Shown here one piece after another: positions 2,663 through 64,000 of a DNA stretch of 64,000 nucleotides. The DNA comes from Candidatus Sungiibacteriota bacterium (lineage in GTDB: Bacteria > Patescibacteriota > Minisyncoccia > Sungbacterales > JACQCQ01), in assembly GCA_016201505.1 (NCBI GenBank), contig JACQCQ010000002.1:144903-208902 (forward strand), written 5' to 3'. The position numbers and the translations under genes are program-made. The notes beneath the pieces are model-generated. The model did no database searches, was not told where the DNA came from, and worked only from the letters and a program-made list of their open reading frames with translations. Every line of letters begins with the position of its first letter. Position 1 is the stretch's first letter.

Positions 2663-3628
2663 ATGAGAGTAGTAATCACCAGAAAAATTCCGGACCGCGG
2701 AATCAAGATGTTAAAAGCCGCGGGATATGATGTTGTCATCAGTCCGCATGATCGGGTCTTAACGCCGGAAGAATTAACTGAAATGGGGAAGGGGGCCGAT
2801 GCGGTTCTCGCCCAGCTTACCGACAAAATAACGCAGGACGTTTTAGAATCTTGGCGAGGAACGGTAAAGATCGTGGCGAATTATGCCGTTGGTTACGACA
2901 ACATTGATATGGCTGCAGCGCGAGGGCTAGGGATCATAATCTCAAATACGCCCGACGTCTTGACCGAGACGGTAGCCGAACATGCTTTTGCCTTACTGCT
3001 TGGGATTGCGCACCGCGTCGTCGAGTCGGACGCTTTTATGCGCGCCGGCAAATATGTCGGCTGGGCGCCGGAACTGCTTTTGGGTACTGATGTCGCGCAC
3101 AAAGTCTTAGGCGTTGTCGGGCTTGGCCGAATCGGCTCTCGCGTTGTGCATCAGGGCGTAAAAGGTTTTGATATGCAAGCCGTCTATTATGATGTGCGTC
3201 GCAACGAGGAGTTTGAAAAAGATACGGGGGCAAAATTCTGTGAGACTCCGGAAGAAGTTTTTAAAACGGCTGATTTTATCTCGATTCACGTGCCGCTGCT
3301 TCCGACAACACGTCACTTGGTCAACGCCGAACGTCTTTCCTTGATGAAGCCAACGGCATATCTCATTAATACGTCGCGAGGTCCGATAGTTGATGAGCAT
3401 GCGCTCGCTGAAGCCCTGCGCGATAAGGTTATTGCCGGTGCGGCCCTTGATGTCTTTGAACATGAGCCGGATATGGATCCTTTGTTGAAAGACTTGCCGA
3501 ATGTCATCGTAACTCCGCATACCGCTTCCGCCACGTTGGAATCCCGCCAGAAAATGGGTGAAGTGGCAGCCAGCAATATCGTTGAAGTACTGGCTGGCCG
3601 TGAGGCGCCCAATGCAGTTAAAACATAG
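2663..3628 (+). CDS. D-isomer-specific 2-hydroxyacid dehydrogenase (glycerate/hydroxypyruvate reductase-like)
   Basis: 321 aa. GLGRIGSRV NAD-binding motif and catalytic R/E/H pattern near the C-terminus. Confidence 0.75.
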   Translation: MRVVITRKIPDRGIKMLKAAGYDVVISPHDRVLTPEELTEMGKGADAVLAQLTDKITQDVLESWRGTVKIVANYAVGYDNIDMAAARGLGIIISNTPDVLTETVAEHAFALLLGIAHRVVESDAFMRAGKYVGWAPELLLGTDVAHKVLGVVGLGRIGSRVVHQGVKGFDMQAVYYDVRRNEEFEKDTGAKFCETPEEVFKTADFISIHVPLLPTTRHLVNAERLSLMKPTAYLINTSRGPIVDEHALAEALRDKVIAGAALDVFEHEPDMDPLLKDLPNVIVTPHTASATLESRQKMGEVAASNIVEVLAGREAPNAVKT

Positions 3629-3647
3629 TGTACTCGCTGGCTCACTC

Positions 3648-3686
3648 GAGCCCCCGCCCGCGGGCGGGGGCTCTTTCATTTTTTTT
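3648..3686 (+). terminator. rho-independent terminator (GAGCCCCCGCCCGCGGGCGGGGGCTC followed by a T-run)
   Basis: GC-rich perfect hairpin followed by TTTCATTTTTTTT, directly after the dehydrogenase stop codon. Confidence 0.8.
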
Positions 3687-3714
3687 AAATTCCTGGTACT
3701 ATTTTTTCGTCATT

Positions 3715-4395
3715 ATGATCACTCTTGAAGCTGAACCACGCAGACTGACGGGGAAAGCCGTGAAGCAATTACGCAAGCAGGATCTCCTGCCGGCCGTTTT
3801 ATATGGCGCCAAAACGGCATCCGAACCCATCATGGTGCCGCTTAAGTCTTTTAAAAAGGTTCTTGCCGAAGCCGGTGAATCAACCCTGATTGCTCTTTTG
3901 ATGAAAGGTAAAGAGGTTAATGTCTTGATTCATGATGTCCTGCGTGATCCATTAACCGAGGCGCCGTTGCATGCTGATTTTTTGGCAGTCCAGATGGATA
4001 AAGAAGTTCGCACCAATGTTCCGCTTGAGTTTATGGGCGAGGCGCCCGCTATTCGGGTGGAGCAAGGAGTCTTGGTAAAAGTCATGCATGATATTGAAAT
4101 TTCCGCTCTGCCCGTGGATCTCCCTTCGCACATCAAAGTTAATTTGGCAGTCCTTCTGCATATTCATGATCGGCTGGTCGTAGAGAATTTAAATATTCCC
4201 CAAGGTGTAAAAGTTATTACGCCCGGTGACGAGGTGGTAGTTTTGATCGAGGCGCCGCGATCCGAGGAAGAACTAAAAGCGCTTGAGACCGCCGAGCCAG
4301 CCGCAACCGTTGAAGTTATGACGGAGGCTGAAATCAAAAAGAAGGTTGAAGATGAAGCAGCCGCGGCTACAGGAGAGATTAAGGAGGTTAAGTAA
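3715..4395 (+). CDS. rplY: 50S ribosomal protein L25 / general stress protein Ctc
   Basis: The start at MITLEAEPRRLTGKAVKQLRK... lies downstream of the terminator. L25 N-terminal beta-barrel signature and an acidic C-terminal extension. Confidence 0.75.
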   Translation: MITLEAEPRRLTGKAVKQLRKQDLLPAVLYGAKTASEPIMVPLKSFKKVLAEAGESTLIALLMKGKEVNVLIHDVLRDPLTEAPLHADFLAVQMDKEVRTNVPLEFMGEAPAIRVEQGVLVKVMHDIEISALPVDLPSHIKVNLAVLLHIHDRLVVENLNIPQGVKVITPGDEVVVLIEAPRSEEELKALETAEPAATVEVMTEAEIKKKVEDEAAAATGEIKEVK

Positions 4396-9847: not shown

Positions 9848-10028
9848 CGTGGATAACCTGTGAATTAGTCAAGTGAATTTGATAAAAAATTGGCTCATAT
9901 GAGCCAATTTTTTATTTTATATGGAGTCGCGTGAAATATGTTTGACAATGGTACATTGTGGCTACTATGATTATTCCAGTGGTGATTTGTGGATAAAAGT
10001 GGGGATAAGTCAGCTCTTTTGTGGATAA
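9848..10028 (+). promoter_or_regulatory. cluster of DnaA-box-like sites (TGTGGATAA, the reverse complement of TTATCCACA) at 9848-9856 (one mismatch), 9988-9996 and 10020-10028, plus a degenerate copy near 9999-10010
   Basis: Same-orientation 9-mers matching the DnaA box consensus, flanking the tRNA terminator and an AT-rich tract, about 250 bp upstream of mraZ. Confidence 0.4.
9888..9920 (+). terminator. rho-independent terminator (AATTGGCTCATATGAGCCAATT followed by a T-run) after tRNA-Tyr
   Basis: Perfect 9-bp stem with a T-run. An A-run upstream makes it potentially bidirectional. Confidence 0.75.
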
Positions 10029-30403: not shown

Positions 30404-30430
30404 TTAGCAGTCGATAAAGTTGAGTGCTAA
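30404..30430 (+). promoter_or_regulatory. CIRCE operator (TTAGCAGTC-N9-GAGTGCTAA), the HrcA binding site
   Basis: One mismatch from the TTAGCACTC-N9-GAGTGCTAA consensus, in the classical position downstream of the groES promoter. Confidence 0.8.
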
Positions 30431-30443
30431 TCTTTTAATTAAA

Positions 30444-30521
30444 GCTGACAGTCTGCCGACTACCGTCTACAGCCCCGCCTGGTATGTGCTGTAGTCTATA
30501 GTCTGTCGTCTGTAGACAGAC
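30444..30521 (+). promoter_or_regulatory. GACTACAG/GTCTACAG-word structured leader element, groES copy
   Basis: GCTGACAGTCTGCCGACTACCGTCTACAGC...GCTGTAGTCTATAGTCTGTCGTCTGTAGACAGAC. Self-complementary words GTCTACAG/CTGTAGAC, ending 3 nt before the ATG. Confidence 0.5.
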
Positions 30522-30523
30522 AA

Positions 30524-30820
30524 ATGAACATCAAGCCGCTTGGCGACAGGGTGGTGATTCTGCCTTTGTCCGATACGAAAGAAGGAAAAACTAAGTCCGG
30601 CCTGTATCTGCCCGATACGGCCTCAAAAGAACGACCGGAAAAAGGCGAAATCATAGCGGTTGGCCCGGGCAAAATGGATGACGCGGGGAAACGGATGCCG
30701 ATTGGCTTGAAGCGGGGCGACGTCGTTTTGTTTACCAAATACGGACCGCAGGAAATAAAAATCGATGGAAAAGAGTACTTGATCGCGCGGGAAGACGATG
30801 TCATCGCGATTGTAGAGTAA
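30524..30820 (+). CDS. groES: co-chaperonin GroES
   Basis: 98 aa. MNIKPLGDRVV..., mobile-loop and beta-barrel pattern. Confidence 0.9.
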   Translation: MNIKPLGDRVVILPLSDTKEGKTKSGLYLPDTASKERPEKGEIIAVGPGKMDDAGKRMPIGLKRGDVVLFTKYGPQEIKIDGKEYLIAREDDVIAIVE

Positions 30821-30845
30821 TCGCTAATATACAAATTAAGACCGA

Positions 30846-32627
<1,782 letters not shown>

Positions 32628-43752: not shown

Positions 43753-43844
43753 TAATATAAATCAAATCGTCTACCGACTACAGACTACTGCACCGAAATC
43801 CAAAGCGCAGTAGTCAGTGGACGGTAGACTGTAGTCCAATAAAA
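43753..43844 (+). promoter_or_regulatory. structured leader element, recA copy
   Basis: AATAATATAAATCAAATCGTCTACCGACTACAGACTACTGCACCGAAATCCAAAGCGCAGTAGTCAGTGGACGGTAGACTGTAGTCCAATAAAA immediately 5' of the ATG. Perfect 9-bp central hairpin GACTACTGC/GCAGTAGTC. Confidence 0.55.
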
Positions 43845-54193: not shown

Positions 54194-54913
54194 ATGAATC
54201 CTGTCACAAAGCGCCAAGAAGATTTGCTGTTTGCCGCAGTTAGCGAGCACATCCGCACCGGTGAGGCCGTCTCTTCAGATGACCTGCGCACTCGGTATCG
54301 CCTGTCATACAGTCCAGCGACCATCAGAAATGAGCTTTTAGCCCTTTCCGAACTCGGCTTCTTAGATCAGCCGCATACTTCGGCTGGTCGTATTCCGACT
54401 GACAGAGGCTATCGCTGGTACGCAGACAAGATTTCAGCCGCGTCGCCTCTTAAAAAAGACGAGGTCACAGCCATCAGACAGATTTCCGAAGAATACACGG
54501 ATTTAAACGAGTTCTTCCGCCTTTCAACTGAAATGCTGGCTCGCATGGTGCAAGCCCTGGTTGTCGGCGGCGTGTCCGAAAATTCAATGGAACCTTTCTA
54601 TAAAAGCGGATTCGGCCAAATCCTTTCCGAGCCCGAGTTTACGGAATCAATATCGCGCAACAGCTTCGGCGAGCTGGTTGACTCAATTGATGCCGATGTT
54701 AGGTCGCTGATCGAAGCTCGTGATTTTAAAATTCCGCACATATTTATTGGCGGAGAAAATCCGATCGAAGAAGCCCGCCCCTACAGCATGATTATAAAAA
54801 CCATCGAGCATGGAGATGATCGGGGAGTCCTGGCTATCATTGGCGCTAAGCGGATGCGATATGATAAAGGTCTATCGTTACTTTCAGCGCTTGACTCAAT
54901 TTTTGATGAGTAA
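54194..54913 (+). CDS. hrcA: heat-inducible transcription repressor HrcA (short form)
   Basis: 239 aa. N-terminal wHTH (TIRNELLALSELGFLDQPHTSAGRIPT). Shorter than the canonical roughly 340-aa HrcA. Confidence 0.75.
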   Translation: MNPVTKRQEDLLFAAVSEHIRTGEAVSSDDLRTRYRLSYSPATIRNELLALSELGFLDQPHTSAGRIPTDRGYRWYADKISAASPLKKDEVTAIRQISEEYTDLNEFFRLSTEMLARMVQALVVGGVSENSMEPFYKSGFGQILSEPEFTESISRNSFGELVDSIDADVRSLIEARDFKIPHIFIGGENPIEEARPYSMIIKTIEHGDDRGVLAIIGAKRMRYDKGLSLLSALDSIFDE

Positions 54914-55570: not shown

Positions 55571-55637
55571 GCTACAGCTGACGGACTACAGACCACAGGA
55601 CGGTAGTCAGTAGACGGTAGACTGTAGTTGCAAAAAA
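55571..55637 (+). promoter_or_regulatory. structured leader element, dnaK copy
   Basis: GCTACAGCTGACGGACTACAGACCACAGGACGGTAGTCAGTAGACGGTAGACTGTAGTTGCAAAAAA immediately 5' of the ATG. Same word set as the groEL and recA copies. Confidence 0.5.
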
Positions 55638-58464: not shown

Positions 58465-59565
58465 ATGGCCGAGAAAGATTTCTATACCACCTTGGGCATT
58501 CCGAAAAATGCCACCCAAGATGAAATAAAAAAAGCCTATCGCAAGCTGGCGCATCAGTACCATCCGGACAAAGGCAATGGCAACGATGAGAAATTCAAGC
58601 AAATAAACGAGGCCTACCAGGTGCTCGGCGATGAAGCGAAGCGAAAACAATATGACCAATTCGGCCAAACATTCAATGCGGCCAGCGGGTTTAACCCGGG
58701 CGGATTTCAATGGTCTGATGTTTTTAGAAATCAGGGGAACAGCGCCGGGTTTAATTTCAGCGCTAACTTTGATTTTGGCGACATTCTGGAAAATGTATTC
58801 GGCTTTAATGCCGATTCCCGCCAGGGGAAGGGTGGGTCTCGAGGCAAGGACCTGGTACTGGAACTTGCGATTCCGTTTGAAGAAAGCATTTTAGGCGGCA
58901 AAGAGACAATCGAAATTAAACGTACGGCACTATGCCGAAAATGTAACGGGACTGGAGGCGAACCCGGCATAAAAATGAAAACCTGCACAACCTGTCAGGG
59001 GAAGGGGAATGTGCAAAAAACTGAAAGAACTATCCTCGGCACTGTTACTCGAGTTGAAACATGTCCGATATGTCGAGGGCGCGGAGAAATCCCGACGAAG
59101 CCCTGCGATGTGTGCGACGGGAAAGGCACCGAGAGGATATCTGAAACAATCGAACTAGTAATTCCAAGGGGGATCACCGCTGACGATACGATGAAGCTAT
59201 CCGGCAAGGGAGAAATCAGCGATCCCATGTCTCCGCCGGGGGATCTTTACGTGCGCATTAAAATCCTGCCGCATAAGACGTTTCGACGCCAAGCCGATAA
59301 CCTGATCATGCAGCTCCCAATCAAAGTTTCTCAAGCAATCTTAGGCGACAGCGTAACCGTCGAGACCCTTGAGGGAAAAATTAGTCTTAAGATCCCGGGG
59401 GGCACCCAGTCGGGAGATATTCTGCGGGTTCGCGGAAAAGGCGTGCCAGAGGCGAGGGCCTATGGGCATGGTGACCTTCTGATTGAGATAAGAGTTGAAA
59501 TCCCGCGCAAGGTTAGTAAAAGGGGGAAAGAAGCCATCGAGAGTCTAAAAGAAGAAGGCTTCTAG
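58465..59565 (+). CDS. dnaJ: molecular chaperone DnaJ
   Basis: Start at [13 protein letters not shown]-domain HPD, G/F region, four CxxCxGxG zinc-finger repeats. Confidence 0.9.
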
Positions 59566-59655
59566 ATAAATAAATCGAAATAATAGAGTATTTCGTTTTA
59601 TCGCGTTAGCGTCCTATTGTGTAAAACTTCATACGAAGTATAATCCACTCTAGAT

Positions 59656-60240
59656 ATGGCGCGAGTCATTGTGGAGAGAGAGGATCGAATGCGAAAGGGC
59701 CAGATTGCGGAGGAGATCCTGCGGGTTTTAAGCCATCGGCCTATTTTTTTGTCTTCACCAAAGGCGAGCGCCGCCAGCCAGATACTTCTATCTAAACTTG
59801 AAGCCAAGGGGATTGGCAGACGACGCAGAAATAACGTAAAAATTGCCATTGATAGGCTAAGGCGACAGCGCTGCATCGAGTATAGCCATGAAAGCGATAA
59901 GCACCTATTACGTTTAACAGATTCCGGTGAACGTCGACTCTTACGCTATCAGATCTTTCATTTGAAGCTGGCAGTTTCGCGCTGGGATAAAATCTGGAGA
60001 ATTATCCTGTTTGATATCCCGGAAGAAAAGAAAATGGCTCGAGATTCCATAACCAGGAAGTTAAAAAATATGGGATTTTATCAGTTTCAACGGAGCGTCT
60101 TCGTACACTACCTTGATTGCCAGCAGGAGGTTAATCTCATTACCGATTACTTTAACGTACGAGAATACTTCACACTCATAGAAGCTTTTGAGCTCGGAAA
60201 TCAAGAATATAAGGCCAAAAGCTTCTTCGAGTTAAGCTAA
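59656..60240 (+). CDS. PaaX-like putative transcriptional regulator (N-terminal wHTH-like region plus a Cas2-like fold domain)
   Basis: WDKIWRIILFDIPEEKKMARDSITRKLKNMGFYQFQRSVF matches the W-D-x-x-W-LLL...G(F/Y)...QxSVF pattern shared by PaaX-family regulators and Cas2. No CRISPR array nearby. Confidence 0.4.
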   Translation: MARVIVEREDRMRKGQIAEEILRVLSHRPIFLSSPKASAASQILLSKLEAKGIGRRRRNNVKIAIDRLRRQRCIEYSHESDKHLLRLTDSGERRLLRYQIFHLKLAVSRWDKIWRIILFDIPEEKKMARDSITRKLKNMGFYQFQRSVFVHYLDCQQEVNLITDYFNVREYFTLIEAFELGNQEYKAKSFFELS

Positions 60241-60641
60241 GATACGTATCAATTTAATCTAACAAGATTTAAAGCGTATCAATCTAGTAATACTAAAAAT
60301 TTATGTTAAACAGCAATTTCGTTATTCTGTTATAACGATAGAACGTATTACTTAATTAACCATAAGGAATTTTTAGTATAGTTATGAAAAATCTAATCAA
60401 TAATTTATAAAACAATATAAAATCCTGATTTTTGTCTGAACAAAGCCTGCCGAACTATCAGGGGTCAACTAAATGGGCAAAGCAGAGTTACCGGACCAGC
60501 CAGAGCCGGCATTTTTTTAAAATGGGGGATCGAAAAATTTGAAAAATTAAAATTTTTACTATTCTTTCGTAACTTATCCACATAAAAGAATTGACGCAGA
60601 AGCAGTATCATAAAGATACGCTGACGTATCAAGATGGAGCT
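60241..60641. repeat. AT-rich (about 30% GC) spacer carrying repeated palindromic GATACGTATC(AA) / CGTATCAA motifs at 60241, 60277 and 60617-60638; further copies lie inside the downstream gene at 61023 and 60985
   Basis: Four occurrences of the 8-mer CGTATCAA within about 800 bp. A GATACG-CTG-ACGTATC dyad overlaps the start codon of the giant gene. Confidence 0.5.
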
Positions 60642-63600
60642 TAAATTAATTCGACTTCGAGAAGCCGCAAAAATTTCTGGAATTCACCAGGACTATTTAC
60701 GAGTTCTCATTAATCGAAAAAACTTAAGAGCAAAAAAAATCGGCCGAGATTGGTTTATTACGGCCCAAGATTTAACCGATTACCTCAAACAATCAAAAAA
60801 ACGATCAAATGGTATTCAGCTGCAAAAGGCTGAAAAAGTTAGCGTCACCCTTAAGCCAAGCCATAACCTAAAAATAAGGCGAAAATTATACCAGCCAGAG
60901 GCTACGCTTGTTCGCACGATACACGAGAACATTTTTTCAAACTTCAATCAGGCAAGGAATTATGAAAAAATAACTTCAGCAGAAAAAAGATACGATCTTT
61001 ACTTAAATCAGCCTAAATCTCGATACGTATCAAACTACAAGCCAATTTTTATATCAATTTCCGCGATTGTATTGGCTTTGGGGGGCTATTTTGCGGCATT
61101 GAATTTTGGCAGTGAGCTGATGCGGGCGGCTAATGAGTCAGGTATCAGGATCCGCAATTTAGCGAACTACCTAACACCGGAGATTACGCCGGCTCCAATT
61201 GGCCAAACGCGCTCACATGCCTATACCTCAATTCAGGAAGGTTCAAATGCGGACCTCGGCCGCGTGTTGCGTGGATTTAGTGAGCTTGGTGCGGGACAGG
61301 CAACTTCCGGATTCTCTAATTTAATTCAAATCGCAAGCCGCACGCCGTATGAGATATACCGGGGTATTCAAAACGGGATTTCCGGCGTGTCGGTAAGCCC
61401 GCAAGCATCCAACCAGCTCTCCGGGATTTTTAAAAGCATCCAGCCCTTCTTCTCCAATCTGCTGATTGGCTCAAATCTCCGCGAGACGGTAACAATTCCG
61501 TCTGATCTCGGCCTGATTCTTCCGCCCCAAGTCGCTTCAACGCCGACAACAACAAAAGTGTCAGTTCCTACCGGCGCATCTTCCGGCACCCAGATTGTCG
61601 CAAAACAAACAATCATCCAAAAGATCGTACCGGCCGACACCGCAAAAATTAAAGCGGAACTTTTAGCCTATATCAGCTCGCAAACGGCTGACTTTAAGAA
61701 CCAGCTTTTTAATCTCTCAAATAAAATCATCAGCCTCCAGGGAAATCTTGACAATACCACTCACGTCGCCGGGTCAACCTATCAAATGGTGAACTTAACG
61801 CAGCGAATAAATCAGCTCGACAGTTTGACAGTTACTGGCGGACTTTCGGTAACTTCCGGAAACCTTTCTGTCGCGGGAGGAATTTCTGCAGCAACCGCAT
61901 CATTTTCAAATTTGAGCGTTTCAAATTTAACCGTAACAAACTGCACCGGCTGCGGCGGCGGTTCCGGATCGCAAACTCCCTGGATTTCCAGCATCGAGGG
62001 CGCGGGATTTAATTTGGCCGACGTTGGCACGTTAACTGTTACGGTAATTAACGCGACCTCAACCTCCGCAACTTCAACATTTTCTACCGGCGGACTTGCC
62101 ATTGGCACCAGTCAATTTGTCATTCAGCAAACTTCAGGCCGCGTGGGCATCGGCACAACCTCGCCAGTTCAATTATTTTCTGTTGTCGGATCAGGATACT
62201 TGACCGGCGGACTCGGGGTTGGTGTCGCTACATCATCAGCCGGCGTCATCGAAACGACCGGTCAAATTCTGGTTGGCGGCCAATTAATTGTGCAAGGTGC
62301 CGCGACGTCAACCTTCACCGGCAACGGCATTAACGTGACGACAGGATGCGTCGCCATAAGCGGGACCTGTCTCGGATCAGGATCTGGCACCATTAATGCG
62401 GGAACAACAAATCGACTGGCGTACTATTCGGGCGCCTCCACCATCAGCTCGGCTAATTTTTTGGCTGTCGACGCGACAAATAATCTCTTCGGCATCGGTA
62501 CCTCTTCTCCCGCATCAGTTTTTTCACTGGCGTCAAACGGCCGCGTGGCTTCATCCACCCTGCCCAATGCTTCTTCAACCTCAATTTTTCTTTCTGGCGT
62601 AAACCTCCAATACGGCTCCTCATCCACCACCACCATTCCGAATTCATTGGTCAATGGCTGGAGTATTGCAACGTCATCCGATGTGGGGAGTTCACCCTTC
62701 CTCTCAATTGACACTTCGAACAATAGGATTGGTGCTTTCACCGTGGCACCGCAGACAGCTCTCGATATCAACGGGGGACTGCAAGCTCGGGGAGCATCAT
62801 CTACGATAGTCAACCTCTCAATCTGGAACGCCACGACGACCCTCTTGCTGGGGACTGGGGCAACGTCTACAATCTCGAACCTCTCCATCTGGAATGCCAC
62901 GACGACCCAACTGATTATTCCCGCATACTATGCCAGTGGCGCGGGGGGGACATTCGGCCACGGCACCTCGACTCCCGGATTCTTTGAGTCTTTTGCCTTA
63001 AATGGCGCCGCATCCTCAACACTGCCGAACGCCTCGTCAAGCTCGTTTTTCTTTTCGGGAATTAATCTGACCTATGGCTCCTCGTCAACCACGACGATTC
63101 CGGCGAACGTAAACGGCTTCTCGATCGCGACATCCTCTCAACTCGGCAGTTCGCCCCTTCTTTCGCTTAATGGATCAAGCGGAAATATCGGTGTCGGCTC
63201 AAGCTCGCCGGCGCAAACTTTCTCGGTCGCCGGCAACGCTTATGTCACCGGCGGATTCGGTATCGGCGCGACCAGAACTTCAAACGGACTTACGATTTCA
63301 TCCATCGCGAGCTGTACCGGCGGTCAAGCCCTGCAAACCGACAGTTTAGGATCAGTTTCCTGCGGAGCAGTTTCAAGCGGAGGCGCCTCGACAGGCGGCG
63401 GTTGGAGTTCAAGTGTTCCCAACCAAGCCGTAACGCTTGCTACCACAACTTTCTCGGTCGGTATTGGCGCAACTACGACGCCGTACGGAAAACTGACTGT
63501 GCTTTCGGGTGATGCCGCAACGACGACCTTGGTGCTTTATCCGGCCGCGTCTCAAACCGCCAATATCATTGATATCTACGACACTTCCGGCGCTCTATCC

Positions 63601-64000
63601 TCGGTATTAAATTCAAGCGGCAATCTGGGCCTTGCGAGCACAAGTCCCGCAACTAAACTTTCCGTCAACGGCTCGGGTTATTTTACCGGCGGCCTGGGAG
63701 TCGGAACACTGAATACTACCGCGGGCACAATTTCAGTGACTGGTCTGGCTACACTTTCGGGCGGAGTTCTCTCCAATGCGGCGTCCTCTACTATTTCCAA
63801 TCTCTCGATCTGGAACGCCACGACCACAAACCTCTTCATCCCCGCATTTAAGAATGGGCTGTCGTATCTGGCACTCGGCACCTCGACCCCAGCGGCCTAT
63901 GTTGCCTTTGCCTTAAATGGCGCGGTCGCCTCAAGCACCTTCCCGCAAGCCTCATCCACATCCATTTATCTTTCCGGCATCAATCTGACCTATGGCTCGT
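60634..64000 (+). CDS. giant repetitive Ser/Thr/Gly-rich putative cell-surface protein with N-terminal excisionase-type HTH and a single TM (partial; runs off the window end; absent from the supplied ORF track)
   Basis: Frame verified codon by codon from ATG 60634 to 63999 with no stop. N-terminus IRLREAAKISGIHQDYLRVLINRKNLRAKKIGRDWFITAQDLTDYL (HTH_17-like). TM YKPIFISISAIVLALGGYFAALNF. Then long degenerate repeats with recurring blocks (GIGTTSP..LxV.G.GY.TGGLGVG; NLSIWNATTT; LPNASSTSIFLSGVNLxYGSSSTTTIP). Confidence 0.6.
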   Translation, partial: MELKLIRLREAAKISGIHQDYLRVLINRKNLRAKKIGRDWFITAQDLTDYLKQSKKRSNGIQLQKAEKVSVTLKPSHNLKIRRKLYQPEATLVRTIHENIFSNFNQARNYEKITSAEKRYDLYLNQPKSRYVSNYKPIFISISAIVLALGGYFAALNFGSELMRAANESGIRIRNLANYLTPEITPAPIGQTRSHAYTSIQEGSNADLGRVLRGFSELGAGQATSGFSNLIQIASRTPYEIYRGIQNGISGVSVSPQASNQLSGIFKSIQPFFSNLLIGSNLRETVTIPSDLGLILPPQVASTPTTTKVSVPTGASSGTQIVAKQTIIQKIVPADTAKIKAELLAYISSQTADFKNQLFNLSNKIISLQGNLDNTTHVAGSTYQMVNLTQRINQLDSLTVTGGLSVTSGNLSVAGGISAATASFSNLSVSNLTVTNCTGCGGGSGSQTPWISSIEGAGFNLADVGTLTVTVINATSTSATSTFSTGGLAIGTSQFVIQQTSGRVGIGTTSPVQLFSVVGSGYLTGGLGVGVATSSAGVIETTGQILVGGQLIVQGAATSTFTGNGINVTTGCVAISGTCLGSGSGTINAGTTNRLAYYSGASTISSANFLAVDATNNLFGIGTSSPASVFSLASNGRVASSTLPNASSTSIFLSGVNLQYGSSSTTTIPNSLVNGWSIATSSDVGSSPFLSIDTSNNRIGAFTVAPQTALDINGGLQARGASSTIVNLSIWNATTTLLLGTGATSTISNLSIWNATTTQLIIPAYYASGAGGTFGHGTSTPGFFESFALNGAASSTLPNASSSSFFFSGINLTYGSSSTTTIPANVNGFSIATSSQLGSSPLLSLNGSSGNIGVGSSSPAQTFSVAGNAYVTGGFGIGATRTSNGLTISSIASCTGGQALQTDSLGSVSCGAVSSGGASTGGGWSSSVPNQAVTLATTTFSVGIGATTTPYGKLTVLSGDAATTTLVLYPAASQTANIIDIYDTSGALSSVLNSSGNLGLASTSPATKLSVNGSGYFTGGLGVGTLNTTAGTISVTGLATLSGGVLSNAASSTISNLSIWNATTTNLFIPAFKNGLSYLALGTSTPAAYVAFALNGAVASSTFPQASSTSIYLSGINLTYGS

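Follow-up and report, generated by a model that had tools for sequence, protein, structure and literature searches.

PaaX, the repressor of the phenylacetate catabolon in Escherichia coli (W and K-12) and Pseudomonas, controls its own gene and acts at promoters by steric hindrance; its C-terminal effector domain binds phenylacetyl-CoA. In the lac system, O1 lies at the promoter, O3 upstream and O2 at +401 inside lacZ. The Escherichia coli PaaX operator has the form TGATTC(N27)GAATCA, and the central domain of the protein has been described as a dimerisation motif (PMC9493321). Here we describe a locus that recalls both arrangements in a 64,000-nucleotide (nt) stretch of Candidatus Sungiibacteriota bacterium DNA (assembly GCA_016201505.1, contig JACQCQ010000002.1, positions 144,903 to 208,902), referred to below as the window, in which palindromic words built from GATACG and CGTATC recur around the start of a gene for a giant surface protein, downstream of a gene for a small PaaX-like regulator. 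Conservation of these words across orthologous loci suggests that they are operators for the giant gene, and probably for the regulator gene, bound by a dimeric protein that is, on balance, probably the adjacent PaaX-like regulator. The two genes, in window coordinates, are:

59656 to 60240, plus strand: small PaaX-like regulator gene (winged helix-turn-helix (HTH) and Cas2-like PaaX_M domain), assigned by Pfam, AlphaFold2 (AF2) model and fold match
60634 to 64000, plus strand, running off the window: giant surface-protein gene, assigned by translation, Pfam and NCBIfam

The regulator resembles PaaX in its winged HTH and its middle, Cas2-like domain. The open reading frame (ORF) matches Pfam PF20803 (PaaX_M, E=6.8e-18), its AF2 model (mean predicted local distance difference test score, pLDDT, 87.5) has a winged HTH followed by a ferredoxin-like domain, and a Foldseek search of the PDB with that model placed E. 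coli PaaX (8A39) at the top (E=1e-5, 181 aligned columns), followed by PadR-type winged-HTH proteins and Cas2. The hexamers TGATAC/GTATCA of the locus are identical at five of six positions to TGATTC/GAATCA, and some pairs stand 30-39 base pairs (bp) apart. Unlike PaaX, which has 316 amino acids (aa), the regulators here have 183-194 aa and lack PaaX_C; half-sites also occur at 0 and 4-6 bp spacing, also in coding DNA; and the target is a giant surface-protein gene in Patescibacteria. The motif locus is surrounded by hrcA-grpE-dnaK-hyp-dnaJ and the giant gene, and paa catabolic genes are absent among these neighbours. The arrangement recalls lac in having a promoter-proximal dyad with copies upstream and ~355-400 (or ~650) bp inside the gene, and a regulator gene immediately upstream. 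This is an analogy of layout only: the regulator belongs to another family, with no known tetramerisation, and looping here would be hypothetical.

The motif in the window and in orthologous loci

Reading of positions 59400-61400 and pattern searches recovered every copy of the motif listed in a preliminary description of the window, with coordinates there found to be off by 1-2 nt. The sites are as follows:

60239 to 60252, no strand assigned: upstream site A, AAGATACGTATCAA, containing the perfect 10-bp palindrome GATACGTATC directly past the regulator stop codon
60275 to 60282, plus strand: extra half-site CGTATCAA, 22 nt past site A, giving AGATAC-N30-GTATCA with the GATAC at 60241
60613 to 60632, no strand assigned: putative promoter-proximal operator, AAGATACG-ctga-CGTATCAA, separated from the ATG by 1 nt
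60987 to 60994, plus strand: intragenic half-site AAGATACG, on codons K118-R119-Y120-D121
61022 to 61033, no strand assigned: intragenic palindrome GATACGTATCAA, on codons R130-Y131-V132-S133(-N134)

The 12-mer GATACGTATCAA is present at 60241-60252, 1 nt past the regulator stop codon (TAA, 60238-60240), and at 61022-61033 inside the giant gene (formerly given as 61023-61034), the identical palindromes at 60241 and 61022 being 781 bp apart. CGTATCAA lies at 60275-60282 and 60625-60632 (formerly 60277-84 and 60627-34), and the dyad GATACG-CTGA-CGTATC at 60615-60630 (formerly 60617-32), its end 4 nt before the ATG at 60634. Additional copies were found, namely AAGATACG three times (60239, 60613 and 60987), GATACG at 60989 and GTATCAT at 60605, and GATACG/CGTATC hexamers number eight within 60241-61031. 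Long-spaced pairs in the window are AGATAC-N30-GTATCA at 60240-60281 and an N33 pair at 60988-61032. The spacer (60241-60633) has 30.3% GC, in agreement with the 30% given before.

Over the whole window, CGTATCAA was observed 9 times vs 1.8 expected; the other five copies are scattered in coding DNA, and none of them extends to a palindrome. Shuffles of 60241-61036 (n=5000) contained a mean of 0.21 GATACG/CGTATC hexamers and a maximum of 3, vs 8 observed. When every hexamer and every position was allowed for, in block shuffles (400 bp) preserving local composition, 4% of the shuffles reached the observed cluster score (p~0.04). Four copies of some 8-mer within 800 bp, previously described as far above chance, were met in 16% of local-composition shuffles, and for the window alone that wording was too strong: the enrichment is suggestive and not overwhelming. 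Chance clustering of an AT-rich word, combined with coincidental codon usage, can draw on these window-only values (corrected p about 0.04 to 0.16) and on the estimate that 64 kb should hold ~3 instances of a 12-mer repeated within 800 bp. The real proof comes from conservation in orthologous loci.

Two further repeats were seen. The only other 8-mer with four copies in 800 bp is GAGGCGCC, found four times within 650 bp of coding DNA (window 3602-4249), and the exact 11-mer ACCAGCCAGAG is present both in the spacer (60495-60505) and in the giant gene (60890-60900), 395 bp apart, probably by chance.

Orthologous loci were gathered by exact and homologue look-ups and represent eight Patescibacteria lineages: the window (identical to L001), L002-5/L100, L006-11/L099, L012-16/L096-98, L108 (Candidatus Sungiibacteriota metagenome-assembled genome GCA_016181565.1), L109, L110 and L111 (GCA_016203635.1). 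Gene order in the eight is (dnaK-hyp-)dnaJ, PaaX_M gene, an AT-rich spacer of 380-740 bp and the HTH_17 giant gene. Between lineages, the PaaX-like proteins share 48-89% identity, against only 27-39% for the giant N-termini of the window, L108, L109 and L110. The proximal dyad, GATACG-N4-C(G/A)TATC, was found in 8/8 lineages with arms and spacing invariant in spacers that have otherwise diverged; its centre varies (ctga, ttag, gaaa, ttat, ctat, ttaa). It follows a -10-like box by 3 nt (15 nt in L111) and precedes ATGGAG by 1-25 nt.

Outside the proximal dyad, perfect palindromes of the form (A/T)TGATACGTATCA(A/T) occupy lineage-specific positions: 1 nt (window) or 23 nt (L006/L099) after the PaaX-like stop codon, 9 nt past the dnaJ stop codon (L002), at -208 of the giant ATG (L109) and at -114 of the PaaX-like ATG (L111). 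They are often accompanied by an extra CGTATCA 6-26 nt downstream (spacer of 14 in L002, 26 in L111 and 6 at +654 in the sister clade), and the L002/L006/L016 clade has TGATACG-N37-CGTATCA, equivalent to TGATAC-N39-GTATCA, at -142/-99. Auxiliary operators typically move in this way while their sequence is kept, and these palindromes may be sites of that kind.

In the window, L006 and L002, identical palindromes flank the spacer and the 5' end of the gene, which codes for a surface protein with an N-terminal domain of the excisionase family, and the palindromes could accordingly be imagined as recombinase crossover sites for inversion or excision of the promoter and 5' end, with phase variation of the surface protein as the result. 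We regard this as highly improbable. In L012/L016 and L108 there is a single perfect palindrome in the sequence at hand, the invariant feature is the promoter-proximal N4 dyad and not the flanking pair, ~30 independently assembled contigs have one orientation throughout, and no recombinase gene is adjacent in the window locus.

Codon constraint within the giant gene and locus specificity

The intragenic sites fall in the linker of the giant protein. In the window, L108, L109, L110 and L111, the linker peptide KRY(D/E/A)-x7-(R/G)YVS is coded xGA-TAC-G ... xGA-TAC-GTA-TCA, which places the pair GATACG-N27-GATACGTATCA at +355 to +445, with GATACG on the same codons and always 33 nt before the palindrome. 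The motif codons are TAC, GTA and TCA in all five lineages; outside the motif, Tyr is encoded by TAT, Val by GTT or GTG and Ser by TCT. As background, one codon was kept in only 9/31 other shared degenerate-residue columns among the four closer lineages. L111 has changed Arg to Gly (GGA) and has retained the GA of the DNA word. The sister clade has GATACG(T/C)C or AATACG, and no palindrome, at the place corresponding to the five-lineage palindrome; its own palindrome, ATGATACGTATCATTTTnnnCGTATC, is located at +654 on DTYHFxRI, with 7/7 codons identical vs a 45% background, and L108 carries the degenerate GATATCTATCAT at the +654 position. One perfect intragenic palindrome is retained per clade, at differing places, and the peptides encoded by the palindromes are the only well-conserved islands in a fast-evolving linker. 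At the level of sequence comparison, this shows the intragenic sites to be under DNA-level selection inside a coding region.

No other full palindrome or dyad was found within the 64-kb window, so the motif has a positional bias. A profile scan with the PaaX-like alignment confirmed 559 stretches in representative genomes, and a single genome often holds several. Of 80 loci returned by the genome scan one was orthologous, and the 79 non-orthologous loci (~800 kb), which have different neighbours, served as negative controls. In these 79 PaaX_M loci GATACGTATC was found once, consistent with chance, and no copy of the N4 dyad was present. A motif cluster is also missing from L112, which encodes a long HTH_17 protein of more distant relationship. 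The motif words are shown by these alignments and scans to be specific to this locus type. Eight-lineage conservation, including that at synonymous sites, and near-absence from the control loci refute chance clustering, the probability of which we consider negligible.

The preliminary description had proposed operator sites for the HTH of the giant protein or for the PaaX-like regulator. Sequence conservation, synonymous-site fixation and specificity support protein-binding operators; the choice between the two proteins is left undecided by the same data and is weighed below.

Putative promoter elements and candidate binding proteins

Three further elements of the spacer bear on how the sites might work:

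60313 to 60345, plus strand: conserved spacer block ATTTC..TA..T..TATA.C, from orthologue alignments, reading AATTTCAATATAATGCTATAGC in orthologues
60574 to 60582, plus strand: TTATCCACA, an exact DnaA-box consensus, 51 nt before the giant ATG
60605 to 60611, plus strand: GTATCAT, candidate -10 box and GTATCA half-site, from comparison of the eight lineages

The -10-like box reads TGgTATCAT in five lineages; the other versions are cagTATCAT (window), TGaTATTAT (L110) and ttgTATCAT (L111). Because L110 stays -10-like though it has lost the GTATC word, we infer that the TATCAT box is the -10 element of the giant gene, for which TGnTATCAT would form a good extended -10, and the dyad would then lie at about +1 to +16 of the transcript. 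A simple sigma-70 scan returned no plus-strand promoter; its only hit on the dyad was a 'terminator-like' hairpin on the minus strand, a call without meaning at this place.

The block at 60313-60345 is present in all orthologous spacers, with ATTTCA-N22-TGAAAT in its orthologue form AATTTCAATATAATGCTATAGC, and is bracketed in the window by a perfect 12-nt inverted repeat at 60290-60301 and 60368-60379 (ATACTAAAAATT and AATTTTTAGTAT); it may be a second promoter or operator. TTATCCACA is exact in 7/8 lineages, 66-68 nt before the ATG in six, and L111 has the variant TTTTCCACA, which falls within the degenerate TTWTNCACA. The 9-mer thus matches a DnaA box, here as a single putative box without a cluster. 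Since it lies upstream of the putative promoter, it would act, if at all, as a transcription-factor site. An origin of replication (oriC) was rejected, as the spacer has a single DnaA box and cumulative GC skew is at a local maximum rather than a minimum. In the proposed model, TTATCCACA and the block at 60313-60345 would be further parts of the control region.

In that model, the primary operator (60613-60632) would lie directly downstream of the -10-like TATCAT and abut the start codon, and a protein bound there would block RNA polymerase binding or promoter escape. The auxiliary sites, located upstream (60239-60282) and ~355-400 bp inside the gene (60987-61033; ~650 bp in the sister clade), would either increase occupancy locally, by cooperative binding or by looping of the DNA, or serve as roadblocks. 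The repressor would be local and autoregulated, with sites in the flanks of its own gene. Protein binding, the identity of the protein, repression as the direction of control, the promoter assignment and looping are all elements that we infer.

Every copy of the words could fall within a transcript, and they might instead act in RNA, as hairpins or protein sites in the giant 5' leader, the early coding region and upstream 3' untranslated regions, with an effect on translation or mRNA stability. The proximal dyad of the window folds as a 6-bp hairpin beside the start codon, pairing is possible between the GAUACG at 60989 and the CGUAUC at 61026 (fold z-scores -1.4 to -2.6), and in a genome mostly without Shine-Dalgarno sequences leader structure could matter. 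However, the eight-lineage alignment contains 0 compensatory changes: 5/6 hairpin pairs are invariant, and in three lineages the sixth is disrupted to C.A. The hairpin is absent from the minimum-free-energy fold of the L002 leader, the z-scores are modest, and over the whole spacer alifold gives covariation a term of only -1.3 kcal/mol. A zero-spacer palindrome of 10-12 nt makes a weak hairpin at best (~5 AU-rich base pairs), but would suit a dimer ideally. On these grounds a DNA-binding protein is favoured, and action in RNA is judged decidedly unlikely. A structured cis-regulatory RNA was rejected on the lack of covariation, the weak alifold result and the absence of an Rfam family (no match at gathering or at E<=1, sub-threshold noise only).

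The PaaX-like regulator is favoured as the binding protein because the sites are palindromic and its Cas2-like domain is dimer-forming; because the half-site TGATAC/GTATCA is one base off the E. coli PaaX half-site and is found in N30, N33 and N39 pairs; and because its gene is immediately upstream with sites in its own flanks. Several points weigh against this assignment. The half-site spacings are heterogeneous (0, 4-6 and 30-39 bp between pentamers), and one rigid dimer could not use all of them alike; the long-spaced GATAC...GTATC pairs are, by our estimate, individually within chance (~0.8 expected per window). The protein scores 37.3 bits against the PaaX equivalog NCBIfam TIGR02277, for which the cut-off is 264.55, and no PaaX_C match was found by Pfam, the protein stopping after the Cas2-like domain at 183-194 aa; the operator logic would be carried over from E. 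coli PaaX by analogy only. PaaX-like and HTH_17 giant genes both accompany the motif in every lineage and the recognition helices of both candidate binders are conserved, so the comparative data cannot assign the binder. Only eight lineages are known, several of them closely related. Finally, as all copies could lie in transcripts, a sequence-specific RNA-binding role keeps some probability.

The giant protein begins with an HTH_17/excisionase-type domain (residues 8-53, 60655-60792; Pfam HTH_17, 29 bits; NCBIfam TIGR01764), followed by the poorly conserved basic linker, a hydrophobic segment at ~136-158 (~61039-61107) and Ser/Thr/Gly-rich repeats. The L111 orthologue is complete, at 4341 aa (L111 3501-16526). 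A library-wide HMMER search with the HTH_17 N-terminal domain gave 522 matches on proteins of 66 to 4341 aa, and very long HTH_17-headed proteins recur in public data (up to 4341 aa; e.g. P0013, P0027, P0050 and P0087); a DNA-binding domain, a membrane anchor and a giant exterior is a recurrent architecture. With the giant N-terminus, a word-indexed protein search gave no match and alignment against metagenomes returned only lineages already found and unrelated small HTH proteins; a sequence search of the PDB with the HTH_17 domain gave nothing informative.

This cytoplasmic HTH_17 domain could itself bind the sites, for autoregulation or for tethering of the locus to the membrane, with the PaaX-like protein binding elsewhere, e.g. 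at TTATCCACA or the block at 60313-60345. The domain is real, the helix SGI(H/D)Q(D/N)YLRVLINR hardly varies among motif-bearing lineages, the domain precedes the single hydrophobic segment and should therefore face the cytoplasm, it recurs at the N-terminus of many very long proteins, and the motif brackets and enters the giant gene itself. Excisionase/HTH_17 domains are small and usually monomeric on direct or phased sites, and perfect palindromes suit a soluble dimer better than an HTH_17 unit; a 4000-residue membrane protein in few copies would be an awkward repressor; and L112 has no motif cluster. Binding by HTH_17 is on these grounds thought unlikely. In a fuller form, which we consider quite unlikely, the giant protein would be a membrane-anchored transcription factor acting at its own palindromes, such that exterior events or insertion status feed back on the gene, or the locus is tethered, and the PaaX-like protein uses a different site. 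ToxR, CadC and BcrR would be the likeness, with a cytoplasmic N-terminal domain of DNA-binding type, a transmembrane segment and an extracytoplasmic part; the differences are an excisionase/HTH_17 domain in place of an OmpR-like or XRE one, an exterior of thousands of residues, and DNA binding that is here only predicted.

Returning to the PaaX-like gene, its true start is probably the ATG at 59689, following GGAGAGAGAGG; the 183-aa homologue P0001 begins at M12 of the ORF. Most gene starts in the window (e.g. 55638, 30945, 43845 and 60634) are without a Shine-Dalgarno sequence, many having an A-rich run before the ATG, and 59689 belongs to a small minority whose leader is rich in GGAG. The sequence TTGTGT-N16-TATAAT at 59617-59644 is a candidate promoter for the PaaX-like gene, and an imperfect dyad, cATACGaaGTATa (59631-59642), which may be a degenerate autoregulatory site, lies between and over its boxes; orthologues have GATAGCGCATCAT ~80 nt before the PaaX-like start. 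A 17-nt inverted repeat (88% complementary, 25-nt loop) at 60174-60232 covers the last PaaX-like codons, just before the stop codon and site A. Past the stop codon, orthologues have a clear GC hairpin and T-run terminator, and the window only a weak CCGG...CCGG-T7 at 60481-60508.

Other elements of the window and significance

Two known palindromic elements were compared with the motif and rejected. The parS consensus is the 16-bp palindrome TGTTNCACGTGAAACA, which the TGATACGTATCA-like motif does not fit as a ParB site, and the motif likewise differs from the CIRCE/HrcA operator (TTAGCACTC-N9-GAGTGCTAA). A CIRCE-like element, TTAGCAGTC-N9-GAGTGCTAA, is present at 30404-30430, upstream of groES (30524-30820); hrcA is at 54194-54913.

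A second, unrelated word, GTAGACTGTAGT, has 11 matches (<=2 mismatches) vs 0.94 expected, in the 5' regions of groES, groEL, recA and dnaK (30459-30935, 43777-43835 and 55585-55628). At groEL, recA and dnaK, an exact GTAGACTGTAGT stops 9-10 nt short of the ATG, and an inverted copy is often present 30-45 nt farther upstream. The word may be a stress-regulon operator or leader element. Between tRNA-Tyr and mraZ (10277), 9848-10028 carries a minus-strand cluster of TTATCCACA type, with two exact and two one-mismatch copies. Read on the plus strand these are GTGGATAA/GTGGGGATAA direct repeats, which makes MraZ operator repeats a more likely reading than an origin.

Patescibacteria (Candidate Phyla Radiation, CPR) are mostly uncultivated and almost nothing is known of their gene regulation. 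Host attachment is a role for which their giant surface proteins are leading candidates, and the locus described here is a compact module with a 10-12 bp word, a candidate 183-aa regulator and a clear target gene. It also offers a clean example of an operator sequence that constrains codon choice, and apparently also peptide conservation (KRYD...RYVS), in a fast-evolving linker. A search of the available literature library found no paper linking PaaX-like proteins with Patescibacteria or with Cas2. The PaaX_M family is very widespread in Patescibacteria (>550 matches in representative genomes) without an assigned function there, and if the assignment to the PaaX-like regulator is true, it would be the first function for the truncated winged-HTH and Cas2-like PaaX relatives of CPR. 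If instead the giant protein is the transcription factor, this could be a general design, the same N-terminal domain being present on many long Patescibacterial proteins, and the exterior cue feeding back on giant-protein synthesis might be host contact.

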